From positions 66,786-128,483 of the forward strand of contig JBAZUE010000001.1 of the NCBI GenBank assembly GCA_041661605.1: a DNA stretch of 61,698 nucleotides, read 5' to 3'. Positions 8,360-30,311 of this stretch are shown piece by piece. Source of the DNA: Candidatus Omnitrophota bacterium (GTDB taxonomy: Bacteria > Omnitrophota > Gorgyraeia > Gygaellales > Profunditerraquicolaceae). Below the pieces are notes generated by a model that had not been told where the DNA came from, searched no databases, and saw only the letters and a list, made by a program, of their open reading frames with translations. Both the position numbers and the translations under genes were made by a program. Within the stretch, counting starts at the first letter, position 1, and each line of letters begins with the position of its first letter.

Positions 8360-8934
8360 AGATTGGCATCTTGGGCGGGACCTTTAATCCGGTGCATATA
8401 GGCCATTTGATCCTGGCGGAAGAGGCAAGGGAGAAATTAGGGTTGGATAAGATTATTTTTATTCCGACATCCTTGCCGCCGCATAAAGATAATGTCAATA
8501 TCGCTCCGGCGGATAAAAGGATTAAGATGTTAAGCCTGGCTATCAAGGGTAATAATAATTTTGCGGTTTCAGATGTCGAGATTAGACGTAAGGGCCGGTC
8601 TTATACAATTGACACATTAAAGGAATTAAAAAGCAAATACAGCCATGACGAGCTTTATTTTATTATCGGCTCGGACCTGCTTAAATATTTAAATGAGTGG
8701 AAGGATTTAAACGAAATAATCAAGATGGTTAAATTCGTGGCGGCAACGCGGCCGGGTTTTCCGTTGGAGCAGATTCCGCATTATATCAAGACTCTGGCTA
8801 TCAGGGCAGTGGATGTTTCGGGTTTTGAGGTGAGAGAGTGCGTGAAGGAGAATAAATCGTTCCGTTATTTGGTTCCGGAGGCGGTTTTTGATTATATAAA
8901 CAAGAATAAATTATATTGTAGACAGTCTACGTAA
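8356..8934 (+). CDS. nadD: Nicotinate-nucleotide adenylyltransferase
   Basis: GILGGTFNPVHIGH, PPHK, SYTIDT and FIIGSD motifs. The last residues (CRQST*) are encoded by a 51-bp repeat. Confidence 0.95.
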   Translation: MKIGILGGTFNPVHIGHLILAEEAREKLGLDKIIFIPTSLPPHKDNVNIAPADKRIKMLSLAIKGNNNFAVSDVEIRRKGRSYTIDTLKELKSKYSHDELYFIIGSDLLKYLNEWKDLNEIIKMVKFVAATRPGFPLEQIPHYIKTLAIRAVDVSGFEVRECVKENKSFRYLVPEAVFDYINKNKLYCRQST

Positions 8935-8968
8935 CTGTTTGATAATAAATGTGTTATGAAACAAATAT
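8918..8968 (+). repeat. 51-bp bipartite repeat R1 (family 1)
   Basis: gtagacagtctacgtaac-N17-gttatgaaacaaatat. Confidence 0.85.
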
Positions 8969-9023
8969 TTATAAGAAAAATAATGTATTAAAATGAAGAA
9001 TTATTTTATTTTCTTAAACCAAA

Positions 9024-9074
9024 ATATTTCTTATATAATTGATTGTCTCGCAATAGGTTATATAGACTGTCTAC
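9024..9074 (-). repeat. 51-bp bipartite repeat R2, inverted relative to R1
   Basis: + strand reads atatttcttatataat-N17-gttatatagactgtctac. Confidence 0.8.
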
Positions 9075-9081
9075 TATTCTT

Positions 9082-11266: not shown

Positions 11267-12811
11267 ATGTCAAGCACAACAAGAGAAGAATTGGAGCAGT
11301 TATATAACCAAAGTATTAAAGTTTTGAAAGAAGGCCAAGTTGTTACCGGCAAGGTTGTAGGGATCAAGAGTAAAGAAGTTTTAGTGGATGTGGGTTTTAA
11401 ATCCGAAGGGATTGTGCCGATTACGGAGTTTTCCTCCGGAGATTTAGAGATTGGCAAGGAGATGGAGTTTTTGCTTGAGACCATGGAAAATGACGCCGGG
11501 GTAATGACATTATCCCGCGAAAAAGCCATGCGCATGCAAGGCTGGGATAAGATCGTGAAATTATCCAATGAAGGCACCCTGGTTGAAGGCAAGCCGGTTA
11601 AGAAAGTAAAGGGTGGATTCCTGGTTGACATTATGGGAATAGAGGGGTTTTTACCCAGCTCGCTTTCTTCCTTTCGTAACATCCCGGACAAGGATATCTT
11701 ATACAAGATATTCAAGTTTAAGATTGTTAAGGTAAATAACTTGCGCCGCAGTATTATTGTCAGCCGCCGCGAGGCAGTACAGGCAGACAGGGATGTGGCT
11801 AAGGGCAAGATTTGGGGAGAGTTAAAGATTGGCAATATCCATCCCGGGTTAGTCAAGGCGATTACCGACTTCGGAGCCTTTATTGATTTAGGCGGAGTGG
11901 ACGGCCTGTTGCATATCACGGATATGTCTTGGTCAAAGATCAGCCATCCGAGTGAGATTGTGGCTATTGGAGATAAAATTGAGGTTATGATTTTGAACAT
12001 GGACCAGGCCTCAGGCAAGGTTTCTTTGGGGCTTAAACAGAGGCTCGCTGACCCATGGCAGGATATCGGTGATAAATTCACCGTCGGCGCAAAGGTAAAA
12101 GGCAAGGTGGTCAATATATTGCCTTACGGAGTTTTTGTGGAACTGGAAAAGGGAATTGAAGGCTTAATCCATGTTTCCGAAATCTCCTGGACCAAGCGCG
12201 TGAATAACCCCGGCGAGATGTTTGCCGTAGGCGACATGCTGGAAACTCAGATCTTGAGCGTGGAAAAAGAATCCCGCAGGATATCCTTGAGTTTAAAACA
12301 ATTGGAGCAGAACCCCTGGACTGAAGCTGAGGGTAAGTATCCGGTAGGCTCAAAGGTCTCCGGCAAAGTGCGCGGTTTCACTGATTACGGCGCGTTTGTG
12401 GAATTGGATTCTAACCTTGAAGGGATGATCCATGTATCTGATCTCTCCTGGACCAAAAGAATCGGCCACCCGCAGGATGTGTTGAAGAAGGGGCAGAAGG
12501 TTGATGTCGCTATCCTTTCCGTCGATGCATCTAACCGCAGGATTGCTTTAGGATTAAAACAGCTGCAGGATAATCCCTGGGTAAAGATTGCCGAGAAGTA
12601 TCCTCTGGATACAGTATTGGAAGCTGAAGTGTCCAGCCTGACGGAGTTTGGCGTGTTTGCCAAGATCGATGATGAACTGGAGGGGTTGATTTATTCCAGT
12701 GAAATTGAAAAGGAAACAGTGGCTAATTTAAAGCCTGGAGATAAAATAAAGGTAAAAGTAATCAAGGTGGATGTGGAGCAGGCGAAAATCGGCCTGACTG
12801 CCCGTTTATAA
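11267..12811 (+). CDS. rpsA: 30S ribosomal protein S1
   Basis: Tandem S1 repeats ([45 protein letters not shown]). Confidence 0.95.
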
Positions 12812-13974
12812 TGGATATAAGCAAACAAATAGAGATAATTAAAAGGGGCGCTGCGGAGATAATCTCTGAAGATGAGCTGCGCAAGAAGCTTGAGCAGAGC
12901 ATTAAAGCCGGGCGCCCCTTAAAAATCAAGGCTGGTTTTGACCCCACTGCCCCTGACCTGCATTTGGGCCACACAGTCTTATTGAGAAAACTGCGCCAGT
13001 TTCAGGATCTCGGCCATGAGGTTTATTTCTTAATCGGCGATTTTACCGGTCAAATTGGCGATCCGAGCGGCAGGTCAGAGACCCGCAAGCAGCTTTCAAA
13101 AGCAGAGGTTGCCAAGAATGCAGAGACCTATAAAAAGCAGGTAGCCAAGATTCTTGATACCTCAAAATTAAAGATAGTTTTTAACAGTAAATGGTTTGAA
13201 AAAATGTCAGTTGTAGAGTTGCTGCGTCTTACGACCCATTTATCAGTTTCTCAAATGCTTGCCCGTGATGATTTTAAAAAAAGATACACTGGAGGAGAGA
13301 ATATCTCAATTTTAGAGTTTATGTATCCTCTCATGCAGGGTTATGATTCAGTAGTTCTTGAGGCTGATGTTGAGCTGGGAGGGACTGATCAGATATTCAA
13401 TCTGTTAGTTGGCCGGGAATTCCAGAAAGATTTTAATCAGGCGCAGCAGGTGGTGTTGACCATGCCGTTATTAGAAGGCACTGATGGCGTACAGAAGATG
13501 AGCAAGTCTTATGGCAACTATATCGGTATAAATGAGCCGGCAAAAGATATGTTCGGTAAGATTATGTCGATTTCCGACGAGTTGATGCTTAAATATTATG
13601 AATTGCTCACTGATGAAGATTTAGGCTCCGTTAGGAACATGCACCCTAAGCAGGCAAAGGTAAACCTGGCCAAGATTATTATTACCCAATACCATTCGGC
13701 TCAAGCCGCGGAAAAAGAGGCAGAAGAGTTCAGCCGTGTTTTTTCCCAGAAAGAGATTCCTCAGGATATGCCGGTTTTTAAAACTGACGGGAAAAAGACC
13801 ATTCTGGCTATCCTTATTGAAAGCAGGTTGGCTGCCAGCGGCAATGAAGTCCGCAGGCTGATCAAACAGGGGGCAGTCAGTTTTAATAATATAAAAGTTG
13901 AAAAGGATGATTTTATCCCGAGTGAACCAGGCATCCTCAAGGCCGGTTCCCGCCGATTCCTTAAAGTCTTGTAG
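12811..13974 (+). CDS. tyrS: Tyrosine--tRNA ligase
   Basis: [26 protein letters not shown] and KMSKS motifs, C-terminal S4-like domain. The TAG stop lies in repeat R3. Confidence 0.97.
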
Positions 13975-14021
13975 ACAGTCTACGTAACCCCATATTCCAC
14001 AATCACATCTGTAAGAAATAT
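13971..14021 (+). repeat. 51-bp bipartite repeat R3
   Basis: gtagacagtctacgtaac-N17-catctgtaagaaatat. Confidence 0.85.
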
Positions 14022-14094
14022 TTCCCTTTCCTAAAATAATTATTGTTAGATTTTTTCACCTTTTGCGTCAATTGTAGCAGAAGGAGAGAAAACC

Positions 14095-14778
14095 ATGCCA
14101 TCATATGCACGCAAGCATCAATTGCAACAGTCCTTAGTATATCATGCATTTAGTAGAAGCAGCGGGCGCAAGGTGATTTTTCAAGAAGTAAAGGATTTTG
14201 ATCGTTTTAAATCATTGCTTTACGATTACGGCAATAGGTTTAATTCAAAGATATATCATTGGGCTATTATGCCGAATCATTACCATTTAGTGGTTGAATT
14301 CGAATGCCCTGAACTAATTTCGAAATTTATGGCAGGGTTACATCGGGCGTATAGCCATTATTACCATAAACAATATAACACGGTTGGTTTCTTATGGCAG
14401 GGTAGATTTAAATTACAGCCGATACAGAAAGATTTGTATCTGAAGAATTGCGGCAGGTATGTGGAGAGGAACCCGGTGCGTGCCGGGATAGTCAGGCAGC
14501 CCTGGGAATATGAGTATAGCAGTGCGCGATTTTATTGTTTAGGCCGCGAGGACGGGATAACGCAAGTGAGTCCTGATTATGAAGATTTTGGAAAAGAGAT
14601 TGTTTGCAGGCAAGCTGCTTATAAAAACTTTTTGAGTATTTTTGATAATAAAGAAGAGAATTATTTTGCGAATATAGAGATTCCGCGCGGCGACCGGGAC
14701 TTTCTTCGGAGGCTGGTAAAGAGCGGCGCGCATTATTTACCTAGAAGGCGGGGCAGGAAAGCCGCATTTGTTTCATAA
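14095..14778 (+). CDS. REP-associated tyrosine transposase (RAYT, Y1_Tnp HUH family)
   Basis: YHAFSRS...IF, MPNHYH (HUH motif), LWQGRF, and RYVERNPVRAG with the catalytic Tyr. Confidence 0.9.
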   Translation: MPSYARKHQLQQSLVYHAFSRSSGRKVIFQEVKDFDRFKSLLYDYGNRFNSKIYHWAIMPNHYHLVVEFECPELISKFMAGLHRAYSHYYHKQYNTVGFLWQGRFKLQPIQKDLYLKNCGRYVERNPVRAGIVRQPWEYEYSSARFYCLGREDGITQVSPDYEDFGKEIVCRQAAYKNFLSIFDNKEENYFANIEIPRGDRDFLRRLVKSGAHYLPRRRGRKAAFVS

Positions 14779-14814
14779 AGGTATATCTTTGATGGAATTA
14801 CGTACACTGTCTAC
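14764..14814 (-). repeat. 51-bp bipartite repeat R4
   Basis: gcatttgtttcataaa-N17-attacgtacactgtctac. Contains the RAYT TAA stop codon. Confidence 0.8.
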
Positions 14815-14859
14815 AATTTAGCTTTATTTCCCAAGGATTTCAGGTTATAATTATTAATT

Positions 14860-15132
14860 ATGTTTTGGACGCTGATTGGCGCAATGGCCGCCACCCTGAC
14901 CATGTTTTCATTTATCCCCCAGATAGCCAGGTGTTTAAGGACTAAATCTGTCAGGGATGTAAGCCCGGTTACTTTATTCCAGCTTTCTACCGGTGTTTTG
15001 CTCTGGATGGTTTACGGAATTTACCGCCAAGACCCCATAATCATTTTTGCCAATGCAATCACTTTAATAAGCTTGTCTATGTTGATTATTTTGTATTTTA
15101 AGTACAGCCAAAAACAAGGGGTGGATAGATGA
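14860..15132 (+). CDS. SemiSWEET / PQ-loop sugar transporter
   Basis: 90 aa, three TM helices, FIPQ motif, KSVRDVS, LWMVYG and ANAIT patterns. Confidence 0.88.
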
Positions 15133-17843: not shown

Positions 17844-18902
17844 ATGGCCATTGTTGTAGTTACAGGTTCATGCGGTTTAATCGGTTCTGAAACCGTAAGT
17901 TTCTTTGCCGGAAAAGGTTTTGATGTCGTCGGTATCGACAACAATATGCGCAAGAGATTTTTTGGCGCTGACGGCTCAATCCTCTGGAATAAGAAACGCC
18001 TGCAAAAGTTGTATAAAAATTACCAGCACCACTCCATAGATATCCGCCAGCAGGATAAAATAAATTCAATTTTCAGGAAATTCAGCAAAGATATCGTTTT
18101 AATCGTGCACGCCGCGGCCCAGCCATCCCATGATTGGGCAGCAAAAGACCCGGCGGTTGATTTTGGCGTTAATGCCCAGGGCACACTGGTTATGCTTGAG
18201 GCCTTGCGCAAATTTTCTCCCGGGGCGGCATTCATTTTTACCTCAACGAATAAAGTTTACGGGGATACTCCTAACCGGCTGCCTCTAATTGAAAAAGAGA
18301 AGCGCTTCGAACTACCCGCAGATCACAAATATTTTAAAGGCATTGATGAAACAATGAGCATTGACAATTGCCTGCATTCAGTTTTTGGCGCCTCAAAGTT
18401 GGCTGCGGATATTATGACACAGGAGTACGGGAAATATTTTCATCTTAAGACAGGGGTCTTTAGGGGCGGCTGCCTTACCGGACCGGCGCATTCCGGAGCC
18501 GAGCTGCACGGATTTTTGTCCTATCTGGTTAAGTGCGCTGTGACAAAACGCAAATATAAAATTTACGGCTATAAAGGCAAACAGGTCAGGGACAATATAC
18601 ATTCTTTTGATTTGGTCAACGCGTTCTATTATTATTTCCAGAATCCCCGCTATGGCGAGGTTTATAATATGGGGGGAGGCAGGTTTGGCAATGTTTCGGT
18701 GCTTGAGGCGATTGAGATGTGCGAAAAGTTGACCGGCGAGAAGTTTGATTATGAATATATCGATACTAACCGCATCGGAGATCATATCTGGTGGATCAGC
18801 GATGTCTCTAAATTTAAATCGCATTATCCTGATTGGCAGTATAAGTTTGGCATAGAGGATACAATCAAGCAGATCTACGATAATTATAGACAGTGTATGT
18901 AA
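17844..18902 (+). CDS. CDP-paratose 2-epimerase (RfbE/TyvE)-like NAD-dependent epimerase
   Basis: [38 protein letters not shown] and GYKGKQVRD motifs. The stop lies in repeat R5. Confidence 0.8.
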
Positions 18903-18936
18903 TTCTTTTAAATCTAAATAGTTAGAAAACAAATAT
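18886..18936 (+). repeat. 51-bp bipartite repeat R5
   Basis: atagacagtgtatgtaat-N17-gttagaaaacaaatat. Confidence 0.8.
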
Positions 18937-18949
18937 TACCGAACAATCC

Positions 18950-18994
18950 CGCTCCTATTTTTTTGTAGTAGGCAAAATAGGGGCGTTCTTTTTT
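18950..18994 (+). terminator. Probable intrinsic terminator
   Basis: cgctcctatttt/aaaataggggcg 12-bp stem (one G-U pair), 12-nt loop, then ttcttttttg. Confidence 0.55.
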
Positions 18995-19187
18995 GTTAGA
19001 TTTCCCCCTTTTTGAGTCTATTAATGGTAGAAAGGGGGTTAAAATGAATGATGTAGAGATTTCTGCAGAAGTTAAAGAAGAAACTTTGAGGTTGCAAAAT
19101 GCAACCTCAAAGAGAGGTGGTAGACGGTATACTCCTTATGTTTTTACCGAACAAGGCGTAGTTATACTTTCTCTCGATTCAACCTGA
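18993..19187 (+). pseudogene. ORF6N-domain remnant
   Basis: LRLQNATSKRGGRRYTPYVFTEQGV matches the C-terminal ORF6N motif and the intact paralog at 20506. The N-terminal half is missing. Confidence 0.75.
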
Positions 19188-19203
19188 ATTAACCATCGTT
19201 TAA

Positions 19204-19254
19204 ATATTTCTTTTGTAACCTTCTATCTCTGATGGAATTACGTAGACTGTCTAC
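19204..19254 (-). repeat. 51-bp bipartite repeat R6
   Basis: atatttcttttgtaac-N17-attacgtagactgtctac, the closest copy to consensus. Confidence 0.9.
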
Positions 19255-19261
19255 ATAAATG

Positions 19262-20360: not shown

Positions 20361-20402
20361 AGAATAGATCCGGCCCATAGAGTTGCGCCCTCCCTTCGCG
20401 TC

Positions 20403-20453
20403 GTATTTCTTTCCTAACTACTTATCCTTAATACAATTACGTAGACTGTCTAT
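20403..20453 (-). repeat. 51-bp bipartite repeat R7
   Basis: gtatttctttcctaac-tacttatccttaataca-attacgtagactgtctat, 48/51 identical to R8. Confidence 0.9.
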
Positions 20454-20505
20454 ACTCTAGTTAGATTTTATCTCTTGCTCCGTCTATTGGTGCAAGGAGG
20501 TTTAA

Positions 20506-21018
20506 ATGAATAAAAAAGAGATTGCGGTTGAGGTAGTGGCAACGAAGATTTTACTGGTGAGAGGCAGGAAAGTGATGTTGGATAAAGATTTAGCATTACT
20601 ATATGGAGTATCGACTATGAGATTGAATGAGCAGGTAAAAAGAAATAAAGAGAGGTTCCCTGAAGATTTTATGTTTCAACTTACAAAAGAAGAAGCTTCT
20701 AACTTGATATCGCATTTTGCGATATCAAGTTGGGGTGGTAATCGTAAATTACCGTATGTTTTTACGGAACAAGGAGTGGCTATGTTATCTAGTGTGCTGA
20801 ATTCAAAACGAGCAATCCAGGTCAATATAGCTATTATGCGTGCATTCGTGAAATTGCGGGAATTGTTATTAACACATAAGGAGCTAGCAGAAAAACTCGA
20901 GGAGTTAGAGCGTAAATATCAATTACACGAAACAGACATTCAGGCGATATTCGAAGTGATCAAAAAATTGCTTGAGCCTCCACCTGAACCACCAAAACCA
21001 CGATTTGGGTTGAATTAA
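20506..21018 (+). CDS. ORF6N domain DNA-binding protein (phage antirepressor-like)
   Basis: RGRKVMLDKDLALLYGV, LNEQVKRNKERFPEDFMFQLT, LPYVFTEQGVAMLSSVLNSKRAIQVNIAIMRAF. AAGGAGG RBS upstream. Confidence 0.92.
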   Translation: MNKKEIAVEVVATKILLVRGRKVMLDKDLALLYGVSTMRLNEQVKRNKERFPEDFMFQLTKEEASNLISHFAISSWGGNRKLPYVFTEQGVAMLSSVLNSKRAIQVNIAIMRAFVKLRELLLTHKELAEKLEELERKYQLHETDIQAIFEVIKKLLEPPPEPPKPRFGLN

Positions 21019-21028
21019 GAGACCTGCT

Positions 21029-21079
21029 GTATTTCTTTCGTAACTACTTATCCTTAATGCAATTACGTAGACTGTCTAC
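21029..21079 (-). repeat. 51-bp bipartite repeat R8
   Basis: gtatttctttcgtaac-tacttatccttaatgca-attacgtagactgtctac. Confidence 0.9.
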
Positions 21080-21090
21080 TATACTAATTA

Positions 21091-21143: not shown

Positions 21144-21929
21144 ATGCCTATCAAATTCTCGCTTGGCTGTTTTAAAGATCCAATAGACTCCCGCGATATC
21201 CCCATGGGGCTAGTTTTACCCATAATCCCAATCCCCGTAAGTTTTGACTTCACCAAATTAATGAGCCCGGTTAGAAATCAAGGAAACGAAGGGACTTGTG
21301 TTGCTTTTGCTTCGGTTGTTGGTGTTAAGGAATTTCAGGATAAAAAAGAATATCGTAAACTCATCAAGCTTTCCCCGCGTTTTCTTTATAATCTGTGCAA
21401 GAAATTTGACGGCGCTCCATTTGAAGAAGGCACTTATCCGCGTATCGCGATGAAGGTGTTATTAAATCACGGTGTTTGCCATGAATCTTTATGGCCGTAT
21501 GCTCCGCATCAAAAAAGCCTTCCCTTAAAAGGCGCAGATAAAGACGCGAAGAAGTTTAAGATCAAGGCCTATGCCCGGCTTAACTCGCAGCTTGAAATGA
21601 AACGCAGCCTCGTCGTAAATGGTCCTTTTCTTGCCGGAGTAAATGTATATAAATCCTGGTTTAATAAAAGTGTAGAGAAAAACGGTTTTGTCCCTATGCC
21701 CAAACGCAATGAAAAACTGATGGGAGGGCATGCCATTTGCATTGTTGGCTATGATGATAAGTTCAAAGTTTTTAAGTTTAAGAATTCCTGGGGCGCAAAA
21801 TGGGCGGATAGGGGTTATGGGTATCTGCCATATGAATATATCAAGAAATATTGCAGCGATGCCTGGAGCGCCACGGATTTAATTGAAAACCCGAAAGCCT
21901 TGGTCAAATCAATGCAGGCTTCAATGTAG
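21144..21929 (+). CDS. Papain-like C1 family cysteine peptidase
   Basis: VRNQGNEGTCVAF (oxyanion Gln and catalytic Cys), LSPRFLY, GGHAICIVGY (His), KNSWG (Asn) and WADRGYGYLPY. Confidence 0.9.
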   Translation: MPIKFSLGCFKDPIDSRDIPMGLVLPIIPIPVSFDFTKLMSPVRNQGNEGTCVAFASVVGVKEFQDKKEYRKLIKLSPRFLYNLCKKFDGAPFEEGTYPRIAMKVLLNHGVCHESLWPYAPHQKSLPLKGADKDAKKFKIKAYARLNSQLEMKRSLVVNGPFLAGVNVYKSWFNKSVEKNGFVPMPKRNEKLMGGHAICIVGYDDKFKVFKFKNSWGAKWADRGYGYLPYEYIKKYCSDAWSATDLIENPKALVKSMQASM

Positions 21930-21938
21930 GAGGTGGAT

Positions 21939-22103
21939 ATGGATAATGAAGGCGGATTCTTGGTTAAGTTTGACGGAAAAAAGTCTCTTCGCTGCTACAA
22001 GATAGAATTTGACTATGACGAATGGCAATATATCGTTAACGGGACAGAAAAGAAAGAACTGCCTCCTTGTGTAAAAAATATAACTATTAAAGTAGAGGGG
22101 TAA
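21939..22103 (+). CDS. Unannotated 54-aa hypothetical protein
   Basis: AGGAGG RBS overlapping the peptidase stop. ATG 21939 to TAA 22103 encodes MDNEGGFLVKFDGKKSLRCYKIEFDYDEWQYIVNGTEKKELPPCVKNITIKVEG, below the ORF-track cutoff. Confidence 0.65.
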   Translation: MDNEGGFLVKFDGKKSLRCYKIEFDYDEWQYIVNGTEKKELPPCVKNITIKVEG

Positions 22104-22130
22104 TAATCTGCGCAGGTGGTGGAACATTAA

Positions 22131-22181
22131 GTATTTCTTTTGTAAGTATATATTGTTTATGAGGTTACATAGACTGTCTAT
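22131..22181 (-). repeat. 51-bp bipartite repeat R9
   Basis: gtatttcttttgtaag-N17-gttacatagactgtctat. Confidence 0.85.
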
Positions 22182-22190
22182 GAATATGAC

Positions 22191-22248
22191 TTGACAAAGT
22201 GTAGTTTATCGTGCATACTTGTTTCTGTAGATATATAAAATTATATAT
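22191..22248 (+). promoter_or_regulatory. abiE promoter and candidate autoregulatory inverted repeat
   Basis: TTGACA (22191-96), 17-bp spacer, CATACT (22214-19). Perfect inverted repeat atatataa-aa-ttatatat at 22231-48. Confidence 0.55.
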
Positions 22249-22256
22249 ATAAAGAA

Positions 22257-22898
22257 ATGAAGCTTACAGAATTTGTTAAAAAATACAGCAAGGAACAGGT
22301 TATTGATTCTTCAACCTTTTCTTTGCTTGGCGAGGATCCGCAGAATATCCGCTGCCAGGTACAATATTGGCGCAGGCAGGGGCACCTTATTCTGCTTAAG
22401 CGCGGAGTTTACGTCTTAAGCAATGACCTTAGAAAACAGCCGTTATCTATGGGGTTTATTTCAAACTTTTTATTTTCGCCATCATATATCAGCCTTGAGT
22501 ATGCCTTGAGTTATTATGATTTAATCCCGGAGGCAGCAATGGTTTATACTTCTGTTTCAACTAAGAAAACAACAAAATTTAATACTCCTTTGGGAGTTTT
22601 TGAATACCGTTCAATCAAGGAAGAACTTTTTTTTGGGTTTACTAAAGCAACGGATGAAGGGCAGAATTATTTTATTGCTTATCCCGAGAAAGCGATCCTG
22701 GATTTTTTCTATTTTCATCAAGATATGGATGGAAGCGAGAGCGAATTTGAATCCTATAGGTTTCAAAACCTGGAAAGCCTGAATTTAAAGCGTTTTAATG
22801 AATTTAGAGGTAAATATAATAAGAAAACTAATGATATTGCTCGGTCATTCGCCGGTTTTATTAAATCAGGCAAGATGAGGTATAAAACACTTAGATGA
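22257..22898 (+). CDS. abiEi: Type IV TA antitoxin AbiEi-like
   Basis: N-terminal wHTH (LILLKRGVY), SYISLEYALSYYDLIPE and IAYPEKAILD. Overlaps the downstream nucleotidyltransferase gene. Confidence 0.82.
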   Translation: MKLTEFVKKYSKEQVIDSSTFSLLGEDPQNIRCQVQYWRRQGHLILLKRGVYVLSNDLRKQPLSMGFISNFLFSPSYISLEYALSYYDLIPEAAMVYTSVSTKKTTKFNTPLGVFEYRSIKEELFFGFTKATDEGQNYFIAYPEKAILDFFYFHQDMDGSESEFESYRFQNLESLNLKRFNEFRGKYNKKTNDIARSFAGFIKSGKMRYKTLR

Positions 22899-23701
22899 GA
22901 GATTACATTAAATCAGTTGTTGATCCTAATTTGACGCGAAATCAAAACCTTAACCGAATCAGGGAATATTTGCAGACATATTTCCTTAATATTATCTATA
23001 AAAATAAATTTTATCAAAATCTTGTTTTTACGGGCGGGACCGCTTTACGGTTTATTTACAAGATCAGGCGGTTTTCCGAGGATCTTGATTTCAGTTTGTC
23101 AGCCAAGGCCAGGAATTATAATTTTACCGATATGGTGGAGAATATCTTACAGGAGTTTAAGTTAGCCGGATACGATCTGGAGATTAAATATGATGAAAGC
23201 CGCGCCGTGCACAGCGCTTTATTGAAATTCTCAGGTATTCTTTTTGAAACCGGCTTGAGCCCTTTGAAAGGGCAGAAAATTGCCATTAAGGCGGAGGTTG
23301 ATTCCAACCCGCCTTTGGGTGGAATTGAAACCAGCAGTGTGTATAATTCAAATTTTATGTTTTATATGCTGCACTATGATTTAGCTTCTTTATTTGCCGG
23401 TAAAGTGCACGCGCTTTTATGCCGTGAGTACACTAAGGGCAGGGATTGGTATGATTTGTTATGGTATCTGACAAAATTTAAAGACTTAGAGCCGAATTTT
23501 ATTATGCTCAATAACGCTTTTGCTCAGACATCCCGGAAGCCGGTTAAGCTTACCGTTGATAACTGGAAAGCAGAAATCAAGAAAACCGTGGAAACTTTAG
23601 ACTGGGCAAAGGTCAGAAATGATGTCAGTTGGTTACTTGAGGATAGCAGTGAGCTTGGCTTGCTTGAGTCAAAAACTTTCGTCAATTTGCTTAAAGAATA
23701 A
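22895..23701 (+). CDS. abiEii: Type IV TA toxin AbiEii nucleotidyltransferase
   Basis: FTGGTAL, RFSEDLDF, KVHALL and KGRDWYD motifs. Confidence 0.9.
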   Translation: MRDYIKSVVDPNLTRNQNLNRIREYLQTYFLNIIYKNKFYQNLVFTGGTALRFIYKIRRFSEDLDFSLSAKARNYNFTDMVENILQEFKLAGYDLEIKYDESRAVHSALLKFSGILFETGLSPLKGQKIAIKAEVDSNPPLGGIETSSVYNSNFMFYMLHYDLASLFAGKVHALLCREYTKGRDWYDLLWYLTKFKDLEPNFIMLNNAFAQTSRKPVKLTVDNWKAEIKKTVETLDWAKVRNDVSWLLEDSSELGLLESKTFVNLLKE

Positions 23702-23722
23702 TTCACAAATCAGAAATACGTA

Positions 23723-23773
23723 ATATTTCTTTCGCAACCGCTTAATTTTGATAGGATTACGTACACTGTCTAT
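23723..23773 (-). repeat. 51-bp bipartite repeat R10
   Basis: atatttctttcgcaac-N17-attacgtacactgtctat. Confidence 0.85.
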
Positions 23774-23779
23774 TGAGAT

Positions 23780-24553
23780 ATGATTAAGCCAAAGGATACC
23801 CTGCGTAAACGTTTTATCGCCGCTGAATCCGACTATCTCGTTATTGAAACCATTCAAACATTGTCATCGCGAGGCTGCCAAGGGCAGCCGAAGCAATCTC
23901 GTCTCCGTATCCTCAAGCTTAAAGGCACCTGGCACGCCAATGATTATAATGAACTTTGCTTTGAAGTTACCTTGCGCAAAGGCCCGCCTGAAACCTATAC
24001 CTTTAAAGGAAGCTGGAAGTTAAACAACAACCAGCAGATTGAATATACAACTGAAGATGGCCGCGATACTTTAACTTTTAAAGGTTGTTGGGATATATCT
24101 TCGGCTAATCGCCTTGTTTATATACTTGAAGGCAGCTCAACCTCGCGCTTTGAATTCAAAGTCCAGCTTGAATCACCAGTAGTCTATCCTAAAAAAGGAG
24201 AGATCCGCTATCGTATCGGCATAGGAATCCGCCAAAGCCACCTGACCGCACCTGGCCAGTTACTTATTCTCTACGGAGAATGGAGGTTTGGCCGCAATTT
24301 AGGGCTTACCTTTCAGATGTATTATGGCCAGGGGGTGGTTAGGGCAATAGAGTTTGGGGCAGAGGTTACCTTTGGCCGCAATAAGGCTATTTTCGCGCTC
24401 AAAAATGAGTTTGGTAAGTCTTTAGGTATAACTCTCACCATGACGCATAAATTCTTAGAACATTTTGACGCTGAAGCCTTTATCAAACTGAAATCCCGTC
24501 ACAATGAACATAGCGAACAGGCAATAGAAGTCGGAATCACCATTCCGTTTTAG
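23780..24553 (+). CDS. Hypothetical beta-rich protein with GxW repeats
   Basis: 257 aa with four [LF]xGxW units and a C-terminal Phe. A decayed paralog lies at 29584-30311. Confidence 0.7.
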   Translation: MIKPKDTLRKRFIAAESDYLVIETIQTLSSRGCQGQPKQSRLRILKLKGTWHANDYNELCFEVTLRKGPPETYTFKGSWKLNNNQQIEYTTEDGRDTLTFKGCWDISSANRLVYILEGSSTSRFEFKVQLESPVVYPKKGEIRYRIGIGIRQSHLTAPGQLLILYGEWRFGRNLGLTFQMYYGQGVVRAIEFGAEVTFGRNKAIFALKNEFGKSLGITLTMTHKFLEHFDAEAFIKLKSRHNEHSEQAIEVGITIPF

Positions 24554-24574
24554 AATTAAACAAAACTTGCTCAA

Positions 24575-24625
24575 GTGTTTCTTTTGTAACCACCTAGTAT
24601 TAATGAGATTACGTGCGCTGTCTAT
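24575..24625 (-). repeat. 51-bp bipartite repeat R11
   Basis: gtgtttcttttgtaac-N17-attacgtgcgctgtctat. Confidence 0.8.
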
Positions 24626-29534: not shown

Positions 29535-29585
29535 GAATTTGTTTTGTGACTAGCTGACAATTATGAAATTATGTATACTGTCTAT
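29535..29585 (-). repeat. 51-bp bipartite repeat R13
   Basis: gaatttgttttgtgac-N17-attatgtatactgtctat. Confidence 0.75.
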
Positions 29586-30311
29586 GATTGTTCGTAAGCG
29601 GCTTATCACCGCGGAATCTGATTCTCTGGTTATCGAAACCATTCAAACTTGGGATAAGCCTGCAATCTCGCCTGCGCATCCTTAACCTTAAGGGTATCTG
29701 GCGCGCTAATGATCAAATGAACTTTTTTTGATGTTGCCCTGCGCAAGGGTCCGCCTCAAACTTACACCTTTAAGGGAAGCTGGAAGCTTAATAATAATCA
29801 GCAGATTGAATATACTTCTGAAGATGGCCGCGATAAATTAACTTTTCAGGGCTATTGTAACATTTCTTCGGCTAACTGCCTGGTTTATATGCTGGAAAGC
29901 AGTTTAACCTCGCGTTTTGAATTCAAAGTCCAGCTTGAATCGTCTGTTTTACGCCCGAGAAAGGGAGAGATCCGTTATCGCATCGGAGTGGGAATACGCC
30001 AAAGCCGCTTGACCGCCCCCGGCAATCTGCTTATTCTATATGGTGAATGGAAGTTTGGCCGGGATTTAGGGCTGATCTTCCGGATGGATTACGGGCAGGG
30101 CAGGGTAAAGTCACTGGAATTTGGGGCGCAGGTGGATTTTAACAGGAATAAAGTAATTTTTGCGCTGAAAAATGAGTTTGGAAAGCCCCTGGGTATTACT
30201 CTTACTGTGACGCATAAATTTTTGAAAGCCGTTGACACAGAAGCCTTTATAAGGCTAAAATCCTACCGGAAAACCCGGGCAGTTGAAGCCGGGTTTAGCC
30301 TTCCTTTTTAA
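29584..30311 (+). pseudogene. Frameshifted paralog of the 23780-24553 GxW-repeat protein
   Basis: MIVRKRLITAESDSLVIETIQT, then frameshifts near 29650 and 29715-29730. QSRLRILNLKGIW and ALRKGPPQTYTFKGSWKLNNNQQIEY continue in shifted frames into ORF 29889-30311. Confidence 0.85.

Follow-up and report, generated by a model that had tools for sequence, protein, structure and literature searches.

A RAYT-type HUH endonuclease gene between inverted cognate repeats at the tyrS-SemiSWEET junction of an Omnitrophota genome

RAYTs are the textbook example of a domesticated bacterial transposase, and what is known about them has come nearly entirely from Proteobacteria. We have analysed a RAYT locus of Candidatus Omnitrophota bacterium (genome G000), an uncultured bacterium with a streamlined genome of 1.3 Mb (assembly GCA_041661605.1). 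The window, i.e., the whole stretch of DNA under analysis, comprises 61,698 nt (contig JBAZUE010000001.1, positions 66,786-128,483, forward strand), and all coordinates refer to it unless they are C1- or L-numbered. Between the tyrosyl-tRNA synthetase gene tyrS and a SemiSWEET gene it holds an 846-bp unit (13970-14815), in which a repeat of 52-54 nt, present in two inverted copies, encloses a 227-aa HUH/Y1 gene. The locus is composed of the following features:

12811-13974, plus strand: tyrS, tyrosyl-tRNA synthetase (Pfam tRNA-synt_1b, E 8.6e-82)
13970-14023, plus strand: left repeat R3, 54 nt (nhmmer E 2.9e-9)
14045-14088, plus strand: promoter-like motif GTTAGATT-N13-GCGTCAATT followed by a ribosome-binding site GAAGGAGAG, 5' of the RAYT gene and conserved upstream of RAYT orthologues
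14095-14778, plus strand: RAYT/TIRYT-type Y1 HUH endonuclease gene, 227 aa (Pfam Y1_Tnp, E 2e-15)
14278-14286, plus strand: HUH codons, within the RAYT reading frame
14458-14460, plus strand: codon of the catalytic Tyr122, within the RAYT reading frame
14763-14815, minus strand: right repeat R4, 53 nt, inverted relative to R3 (nhmmer E 1.6e-11)
14816-14859, plus strand: spacer between R4 and SemiSWEET, missing from the empty sites of relatives
14860-15132, plus strand: SemiSWEET, the right-hand neighbour and first gene of the rfbA-rfbD-rfbB cluster (Pfam PQ-loop and MtN3_slv)

The original prediction, made from the sequence of the window, had proposed a RAYT between inverted cognate repeats with both ends fused to coding sequence, and this architecture has been borne out. 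The inverted arms (13969-13993 and 14792-14816) are 25 nt long and 88% complementary, and both repeats are recovered by nhmmer. R3 is built from a head TGTAGACAGTCTACGTAA, a variable middle and a degenerate tail CTGTAAGAAATATT; the tyrS stop codon TAG (13972-13974) lies within its head, TGTAGAC. At the other end, the RAYT C-terminus AFVS and the TAA stop (14764-14778) are encoded by the tail of R4, and an overlap of repeat and RAYT 3' end has been found in all orthologues (AAIFVL followed by the stop). The gap between R3 and the RAYT ATG, first given as 73 bp, has been measured as 71 nt (14024-14094). As predicted, the unit lacks a target-site duplication, its flanks being gtctt on the left and aattt on the right, and no tnpB reading frame has been found in its 846 bp.

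Regarding the encoded protein, the HUH motif (H62-Y63-H64, in MPNHYH) and the tyrosine motif (R121-Y122-VERNP), which the prediction had called intact, are invariant among the 25 homologues over which motif conservation has been judged. The residues Y122-VER-N126-P127 conform to the Y---NP signature by which class 2 of the TnpA-Y1 proteins has been defined (PMC6006769). The single Pfam match is Y1_Tnp (residues 13-126, 57.4 bits vs a cut-off of 23), and the NCBIfam profile ranked second, IS200, has reached 24.6 bits vs a cut-off of 55. Among the PDB sequences, TnpA-REP of E. coli matches best (4ER8, E 0.11), and an AlphaFold (AF2) model of the RAYT (pLDDT 80) has retrieved the same structure as top Foldseek match (4ER8_A, E 9.3e-6, TM 0.62 on the target), with IS608, IS200 and ISDra2 ranking lower. 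By the ranking of the profile scores and by predicted fold, the RAYT appears to stand nearer to TnpA-REP of E. coli than to the IS200 transposases. Its C-terminal extension of ~85 aa is to a large part invariant in the 25 homologues and mostly helical in the AF2 model; a Pfam search has detected no helix-turn-helix (HTH) or DnaA-C domain in it (Bac_DnaA_C, HTH_23, HTH_28). The protein family counts more than 4000 members at E <= 1e-10, and its named members come from Candidatus Omnitrophota.

The flanking repeats belong to a dispersed family, whose copies have been located by an nhmmer profile made from the genome's own copies. The genome holds 23 full-length copies, all on contig C1 (43% GC), of which the window contains 12 and a 43-kb stretch around the RAYT 14; the 18-nt head alone matches 11 times in the window at three or fewer mismatches, vs 0.01 expected from shuffles. 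According to the 82 distinct copies from this genome and its relatives from which consensus and covariation have been derived, the unit is 52-54 nt long and consists of a head, a variable middle of 17-19 nt and a second box, with the invariant head (G/A)TAGACAGT-N-TA-Y-G-TAA and the second box GTTAYRAAAVAAAT. Columns 3-6 of the head read GTAG in 56/82 and ATAG in 26/82 copies, TAG being invariant, and the repeat thus carries at one end an unpaired GTAG-type tag like that of the REP GTAG superfamily. The 23 copies are arranged as 15 singles and four head-out inverted pairs, of which two are free of cargo (144 and 159 bp), one surrounds a truncated ORF6N gene and one, R3/R4, the RAYT. Many copies occupy a gene junction almost entirely, leaving 2-6 nt, and contribute the stop codon of the upstream gene or a start codon. 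Five small contigs of the assembly (C4-C8, 7-80 kb) hold no copy; their GC content of 63-69% vs 42-43% in C1-C3 marks them as probable binning contamination.

The original prediction had asked for a genome-wide count of RAYT copies, which has returned two matches, mutually 53% identical, and no near-identical duplicates; among the congeners, never more than one orthologue per genome has been found. The gene is thus single-copy, and the second match comes with different repeats. This paralogue (C1:44618-45331) is bracketed in inverted orientation by members of a second family of repeats, AAGACGYTTTATRTAAC-N17-GTTACRAAACAATT, of which the genome has 13 copies, and its stop codon also lies within its right repeat. 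The paralogue unit (L002:1382-2213, C1:44499-45330) is located ~22 kb ahead of the window. The two families have the tail box in common and differ in a few head positions. At C1:217558-217691, a composite of two inverted family-2 copies has been observed with a family-1 head abutting one of them, and in the nearest relative, G046, the orthologous counterpart of the family-2 copy C1:595019 is scored as a family-1 repeat, which suggests that heads have been exchanged between the two families.

A link between enzyme and repeats emerges from the counts of repeat heads in each of 41 congeners. Genomes with an orthologue (15) hold 4-38 copies with a median of 17, and those without (26) a median of 0 (Mann-Whitney p = 3e-7, uncorrected for phylogeny). 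In addition, some dispersed copies in relatives, among them the repeat found together with a BrnT/BrnA block (9-13 nt, GAAAGCCGC…), keep a piece of RAYT 3' coding sequence in their tail and therefore derive from the RAYT right end. The RAYT is thus probably the enzyme source of the repeat family, and to this extent the 'source element' of the original prediction has held, copy number tracking the RAYT and right-end remnants being found; its present autonomy is argued against by the single copy, the deep synteny and the static repeats. The orthologue of G021 (L017:2787-3479) has an in-frame TAA at about codon 192 (…EEAYF, stop, NIETP…) and, from its sequence, is a truncated gene or a recent pseudogene; that genome retains 14 repeats.

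The history of the locus has become apparent from the relatives. In 13 congeners an orthologue (77-96% aa identity) is found in the same order, tyrS-R3-RAYT-R4-(SemiSWEET), R3 with its spacer being orthologous in 13/13 of them and the R4-SemiSWEET spacer being conserved 3' of the last repeat. At least 10 congeners show a clean empty site, the check that the original prediction had proposed, in which tyrS ends in ...TTA TGA and shares bases of its stop with the SemiSWEET ATG (TTATGA). No RAYT has been found after tyrS in other families of the order, and in one outgroup family tyrS is directly followed by SemiSWEET. As the outgroups are without the unit, the empty state is ancestral and the unit a derived insertion, which, with its lack of a target duplication and its seamless empty site, resembles an insertion of the IS200/IS605 type. 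Metagenomic orthologues of 75, 72 and 64% identity also lie between tyrS and SemiSWEET, and one of 73% has another left neighbour with the rfb cluster still downstream. In the sister species G010 and G043, the tyrS site is empty and the orthologue is found at another locus, in a repeat-punctuated array beside an ORF6N gene and a papain-like peptidase gene, where the repeats are in direct orientation and the R3-type copy is missing. In G019 (L037:2659-2745), a remnant of the SemiSWEET 5' end (ATGTTTTGGACGCTGATTG…CCGCAGATAG) is found between tyrS and the left repeat, so that the target region may have been duplicated or rearranged when the unit inserted or later. The ABC-F/amidase junction has been considered for defining a target site and has proved uninformative, the gene pair not being conserved in congeners.

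In the rpoB tree, which has served as species tree, clade I (nine genomes including G000) is throughout occupied or left with decayed remnants; in G052 and G007 these still contain the promoter-like stub together with a BrnT/BrnA module. The second clade is patchy; ~5 changes between occupied and clean-empty sites are counted, at least 4 of them forced by well-supported branches, and the local rpsA-tyrS tree agrees on the scattered empty sites. The original prediction had held that its reading would fall if the RAYT were syntenic and fixed across relatives without flanking repeats; it is syntenic, but neither fixed nor repeat-free. By substitution ratios (dN/dS 0.11 for the RAYT vs 0.055 for tyrS), the RAYT evolves under purifying selection. 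The RAYT tree is poorly resolved and star-like, an approximately unbiased (AU) test with p = 0.28 has not rejected vertical descent along the species split, and the synonymous divergence of the RAYT between the two clades does not exceed that within clade I. Horizontal spread, which would have left the unit more alike than its flanks, has been set aside on the similar nucleotide identities (0.79-0.85 for the unit vs 0.76-0.85 for the flanks) and the non-significant AU test.

Regarding present activity, all 16 repeats found in G046 (~92% nt identity) are orthologous in position to copies of G000, so that no sign of recent transposition is seen. Changes with end points at repeat heads have been observed. 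Between the sisters G000 and G056, BrnT/BrnA and one repeat are present or absent exactly at the R4 head, and in contigs of relatives from two other metagenomes (runs X3 and X4) SemiSWEET is deleted such that the last base of R4 is joined to the rfbA ribosome-binding site (14815 to 15123, with GGA in between). Such break points are compatible with cuts by the enzyme at the heads as well as with recombination of direct copies. In the public runs, excision joints have been searched in assembler contigs, and those of the source run have yielded none at high identity; one weak joint from a landfill run (13914 to 14887, with a 27-nt side and a likeness of 85 or more) probably stems from an empty-site relative. 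Accordingly, the insertion is old and quiet rather than actively jumping, and the unit is at present not a self-copying insertion sequence.

We consider it likely that the unit is a TIRtron/REPtron, i.e., a single-copy, domesticated-type RAYT (a class 2 Y1 HUH single-strand DNA endonuclease) with cognate GTAG-tagged two-box repeats. The whole unit has entered the tyrS/SemiSWEET stop/start overlap early in the history of the genus and without target duplication, an insertion at a coupled junction that may have occurred once or a few times and then been kept by selection. The left repeat has become the tyrS stop codon, and the RAYT 3' end runs into the right repeat. Since then, the unit has been mostly vertically inherited under purifying selection, with losses in several lineages and a relocation in at least one. 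Enzymes of E. coli, Stenotrophomonas and Marinomonas have been found to bind repeats strand-specifically, to cut by the catalytic tyrosine and to rejoin the DNA (PMC8266576). By analogy with these three, the RAYT may bind one repeat strand, and Tyr122 may cut beside the GTAG head before the DNA is rejoined. Acting in trans, the enzyme could thus have spread the 23 copies, as singles and head-out doublets, into gene junctions, and it could promote deletions and insertions with end points exactly at repeat heads.

Among the known systems, the TIRtrons with their TIRYTs (Di Nocera et al., 2013, PMC3733652), which largely correspond to TnpA-Y1 subclass 2.1 (Quentin et al., 2018, PMC6006769), have much in common with the unit, and a TIRtron/REPtron is the best fit because the repeats are not stable palindromes. 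As in TIRtrons, a RAYT-like Y1 gene is flanked by long terminal inverted repeats of a kind other than the classical REP hairpin, and the moderately abundant repeat family occurs as singles, dimers and groups. The repeat may likewise overlap the 3' end of the gene ('3'ov', PMC3733652), and the protein is longer than classical RAYTs by a C-terminal extension. Differences concern the repeat, which has a GTAG-type head and a second box at fixed spacing and no GGGGWSAS motif, the protein, in which the C-terminal DnaA-C/HTH Pfam domain typical of subclass 2.1 is undetected, and the host phylum, Omnitrophota, of which no description has been found in these two papers ('Omnitrophica' has 0 occurrences in PMC6006769). 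In the E. coli REPtron, tnpA-REP (yafM; structure 4ER8) is bordered by REP/BIME sequences (Corneloup et al., 2021, PMC8266576), and the two systems are alike in the single-copy gene between inverted cognate repeats, GTAG at the repeat 5' end and Y---NP, with 4ER8 being the best PDB match by sequence and fold. However, REPs are bulged palindromes of 20-40 nt in hundreds of copies, compared to 23 copies of 52-54 nt with weak or absent hairpins here, and the proteins share ~14% identity over the fold alignment, the Omnitrophota RAYT having an extra 85-aa tail.

The REPIN-RAYT systems of Pseudomonas (Bertels and Rainey, 2011, PMC3116915; Bertels et al., 2017, PMC5581495) likewise show dispersed inverted doublets, one cognate repeat family per RAYT paralogue, and a RAYT that is single-copy, vertically inherited and long persistent; the flanking-repeat count is of the order reported for RAYT Groups 1 and 4 (12-14). 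In contrast to these systems, the doublet spacers are 35-265 nt long with the heads outward, most copies are single, the copy number is far lower, and the RAYT unit has precise empty sites. With the IS200/IS605 elements (IS608, ISDra2) the unit shares the HUH/Y1 fold, the missing target duplication and a seamless empty site compatible with peel-and-paste chemistry. Unlike them, it is not multicopy, lacks tnpB, falls short of the cut-off of the IS200 profile as given above, and ends in inverted repeats instead of same-strand subterminal hairpins.

Several observations weigh against a TIRtron/REPtron. The RAYT profile of NCBIfam, REP_Tyr_transpos, ranks first for the protein, but at 61.3 bits lies below its cut-off of 80 bits. 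The repeats are no 20-40-nt palindromes with a stable hairpin, as REPs are: single units fold as single-stranded DNA no better than shuffles (z -1.4 to +1.6), and the head palindrome GTAGAC/GTCTAC is fully paired in only 39% of the 82 copies, as head position 12 is free. A GTAA/TTAC stem is usually possible, yet covariation is absent, as mutual information and pair counts over the 82 copies have found none. With weak hairpins and no covariation, the known mode of REP recognition may therefore not apply. RNAalifold has found no structure in the repeat copies and an Rfam scan of 8-30 kb no family, and, together with shuffles and covariation, these results have led to the rejection of stable hairpins or RNA structures in the repeats. 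Furthermore, the clean empty sites are scattered over the species tree in a way that is hard to square with ordinary deletion, and indels at repeat heads can also come from homologous recombination between copies. Finally, six genomes (G009, G017, G013, G020, G023, G052) hold 4-17 copies with no orthologue detected; some of them are at contig breaks, and the six could reflect assembly gaps, recent loss or independence from the enzyme.

The further copies considered in the window are:

8917-9075 (8917-8970 plus strand, 9022-9075 minus strand): repeat doublet without cargo, between a cytidylyltransferase-like gene and rpe
18885-19255 (18885-18937 plus strand, 19202-19255 minus strand): repeat doublet around a truncated ORF6N gene (nhmmer)
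20402-20453, 21028-21080, 22129-22180, 23721-23773, 24574-24624 and 29535-29584, all minus strand: six single copies in R4 orientation (nhmmer)

In the first doublet, the TAA stop of the upstream gene sits in the repeat head, and in REP-free congeners the gap at this site is 11-98 nt. The ORF6N (KilA-N-like) gene of the second doublet is internally deleted and keeps the promoter-like motif; an intact ORF6N gene, of 170 aa, is found between two repeats at 20506-21018. The first five singles separate genes for an epimerase, ORF6N, a papain-like peptidase, AbiEi/AbiEii, an unknown protein and an AMP-binding protein, and the sixth lies further downstream amid unclassified open reading frames. The region 21144-24553 is an accessory island punctuated by repeats. 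Its genes code for a C1 peptidase of the papain family (21144-21929), probably for a type IV toxin-antitoxin pair, AbiEi/AbiEii (22257-23701), and for a protein of 257 aa (23780-24553) that has no Pfam match and resembles the product of 29889-30311. A strand bias of the repeats with respect to replication or transcription has been rejected, as single copies lie antisense to the genes in one replichore and in the sense direction in the other (GC-skew switch at ~330 kb).

One may postulate that the RAYT itself, by cutting single strands at the repeat heads, mobilises its own unit and the surrounding modules of the type 'gene + repeat', a proposal to which we grant a small chance. If it were true, a 'domesticated' RAYT would still excise precisely and re-insert both itself, as at the tyrS site vs the array of G010 and G043, and small accessory cassettes such as BrnT/BrnA, and the system would be an HUH-based counterpart of the integron platform, aimed at stop/start gene junctions. 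The two readings that treat the unit or its modules as mobile have been weighed separately. In the first, a segment of ~0.85-0.9 kb would move as a whole by HUH 'peel and paste', inserting at TT|ATGA overlaps and excising precisely. This would account for the clean empty sites that keep the ancestral ATGA overlap and are scattered over both the rpoB and the rpsA-tyrS trees with at least 4-5 changes forced by well-supported branches, and it agrees with the empty outgroup state, the gene at another locus in G010 and G043, whose tyrS site is empty, the absent target duplication, the star-like tree, and a synonymous divergence across the clades no larger than within clade I. We regard it as unlikely, since no genome has more than one copy, the site is occupied down to 64% protein identity, the relocated site has direct flanking repeats and no R3-type copy, the right boundary as read from the empty sites lies 20-45 nt past R4 and not at a repeat, vertical descent is left unrejected, and contigs of the source metagenome contain no excision joint.

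In the second, quite improbable reading, the RAYT would excise 'gene + one repeat' between same-strand repeats and reinsert it at other repeats, thereby forming a gene-cassette platform in which the RAYT is itself a cassette. Indeed, ORF6N, AbiEi/AbiEii, BrnT/BrnA and the papain-like peptidase are each followed by one repeat of the same orientation, the 'BrnTA + repeat' indel falls exactly at the R4 head, the RAYT stands within such an array in G010 and G043, and cassette repeats bear the RAYT 3' remnant GAAAGCCGC. However, repeat-free congeners have the same backbone tightly packed, including the peptidase and the 257-aa gene, so that not every gene between repeats is cargo, and a cassette origin for all of them has been discarded; these two genes are resident where both repeats and RAYT are missing. 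Furthermore, the repeats keep their positions between species that differ by 8% in nucleotide sequence, the core genes rpe, rfbA and SemiSWEET are also flanked by repeats, losses are explained by direct-repeat recombination, and no circular intermediates have been seen. That the repeats are instead regulatory or structural host signals (two-box binding sites, stop/start junctions, outward promoters), mechanistically unrelated to a decaying HUH remnant, is very improbable: their two-box geometry, which is fixed around a variable spacer of 17-19 nt and comes without a stable hairpin, their tight junctions with stop or start codons supplied, their positions conserved between species and a promoter-like hexamer pair across R4 would suit it, but they strongly co-occur with the RAYT orthologue in the 41 genomes, a matching second repeat family accompanies the second RAYT, the RAYT itself has stayed intact and evolves under purifying selection, and repeat-free congeners run the same operons without them.

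Regarding transcription, a sigma-70 promoter reading of the two repeat boxes has been rejected, as the hexamers fit poorly with a single weak match, the one across R4. The motif at 14045-14088, from its sequence, may act as a promoter of the RAYT gene. The pattern GTTAGATT-N13-GTC(A/T)ATT, with AGGAGG ~8 nt behind it and then a start codon, occurs eight times in the genome, in the window at 14045-14073, 18995-19022 and 20460-20487 and elsewhere at C1:720933, 815303, 812984, 519036 and 501875, ahead of the RAYT, the ORF6N genes and five others; a ninth match (C1:824832) is without ribosome-binding site and start. The CGTC-type second box suggests a promoter of an alternative sigma factor of the extracytoplasmic function (ECF) type, or an operator common to accessory genes. 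In the spacer behind R4, a perfect TATAAT (14846-14851) lies 8 nt ahead of the SemiSWEET ATG with no ribosome-binding site in between. It may serve as a promoter, and its position suggests a leaderless SemiSWEET-rfbA transcript in the genomes in which the RAYT unit has broken the tyrS-SemiSWEET coupling.

The Omnitrophota unit is a new example of an already known kind of element, to which it adds a natural history: an ancestral empty site, a derived insertion at a translationally coupled junction and a long vertical residence, together with several clean losses and one relocation. It also demonstrates that GTAG-tagged repeats can be two-box, essentially non-palindromic units of 52-54 nt, which bears on how these enzymes recognize DNA. 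The repeats furnish stop codons and lie at the break points where genes have been gained or lost on a small scale, and they thus represent a visible origin of local change in the genomes of these uncultured organisms.

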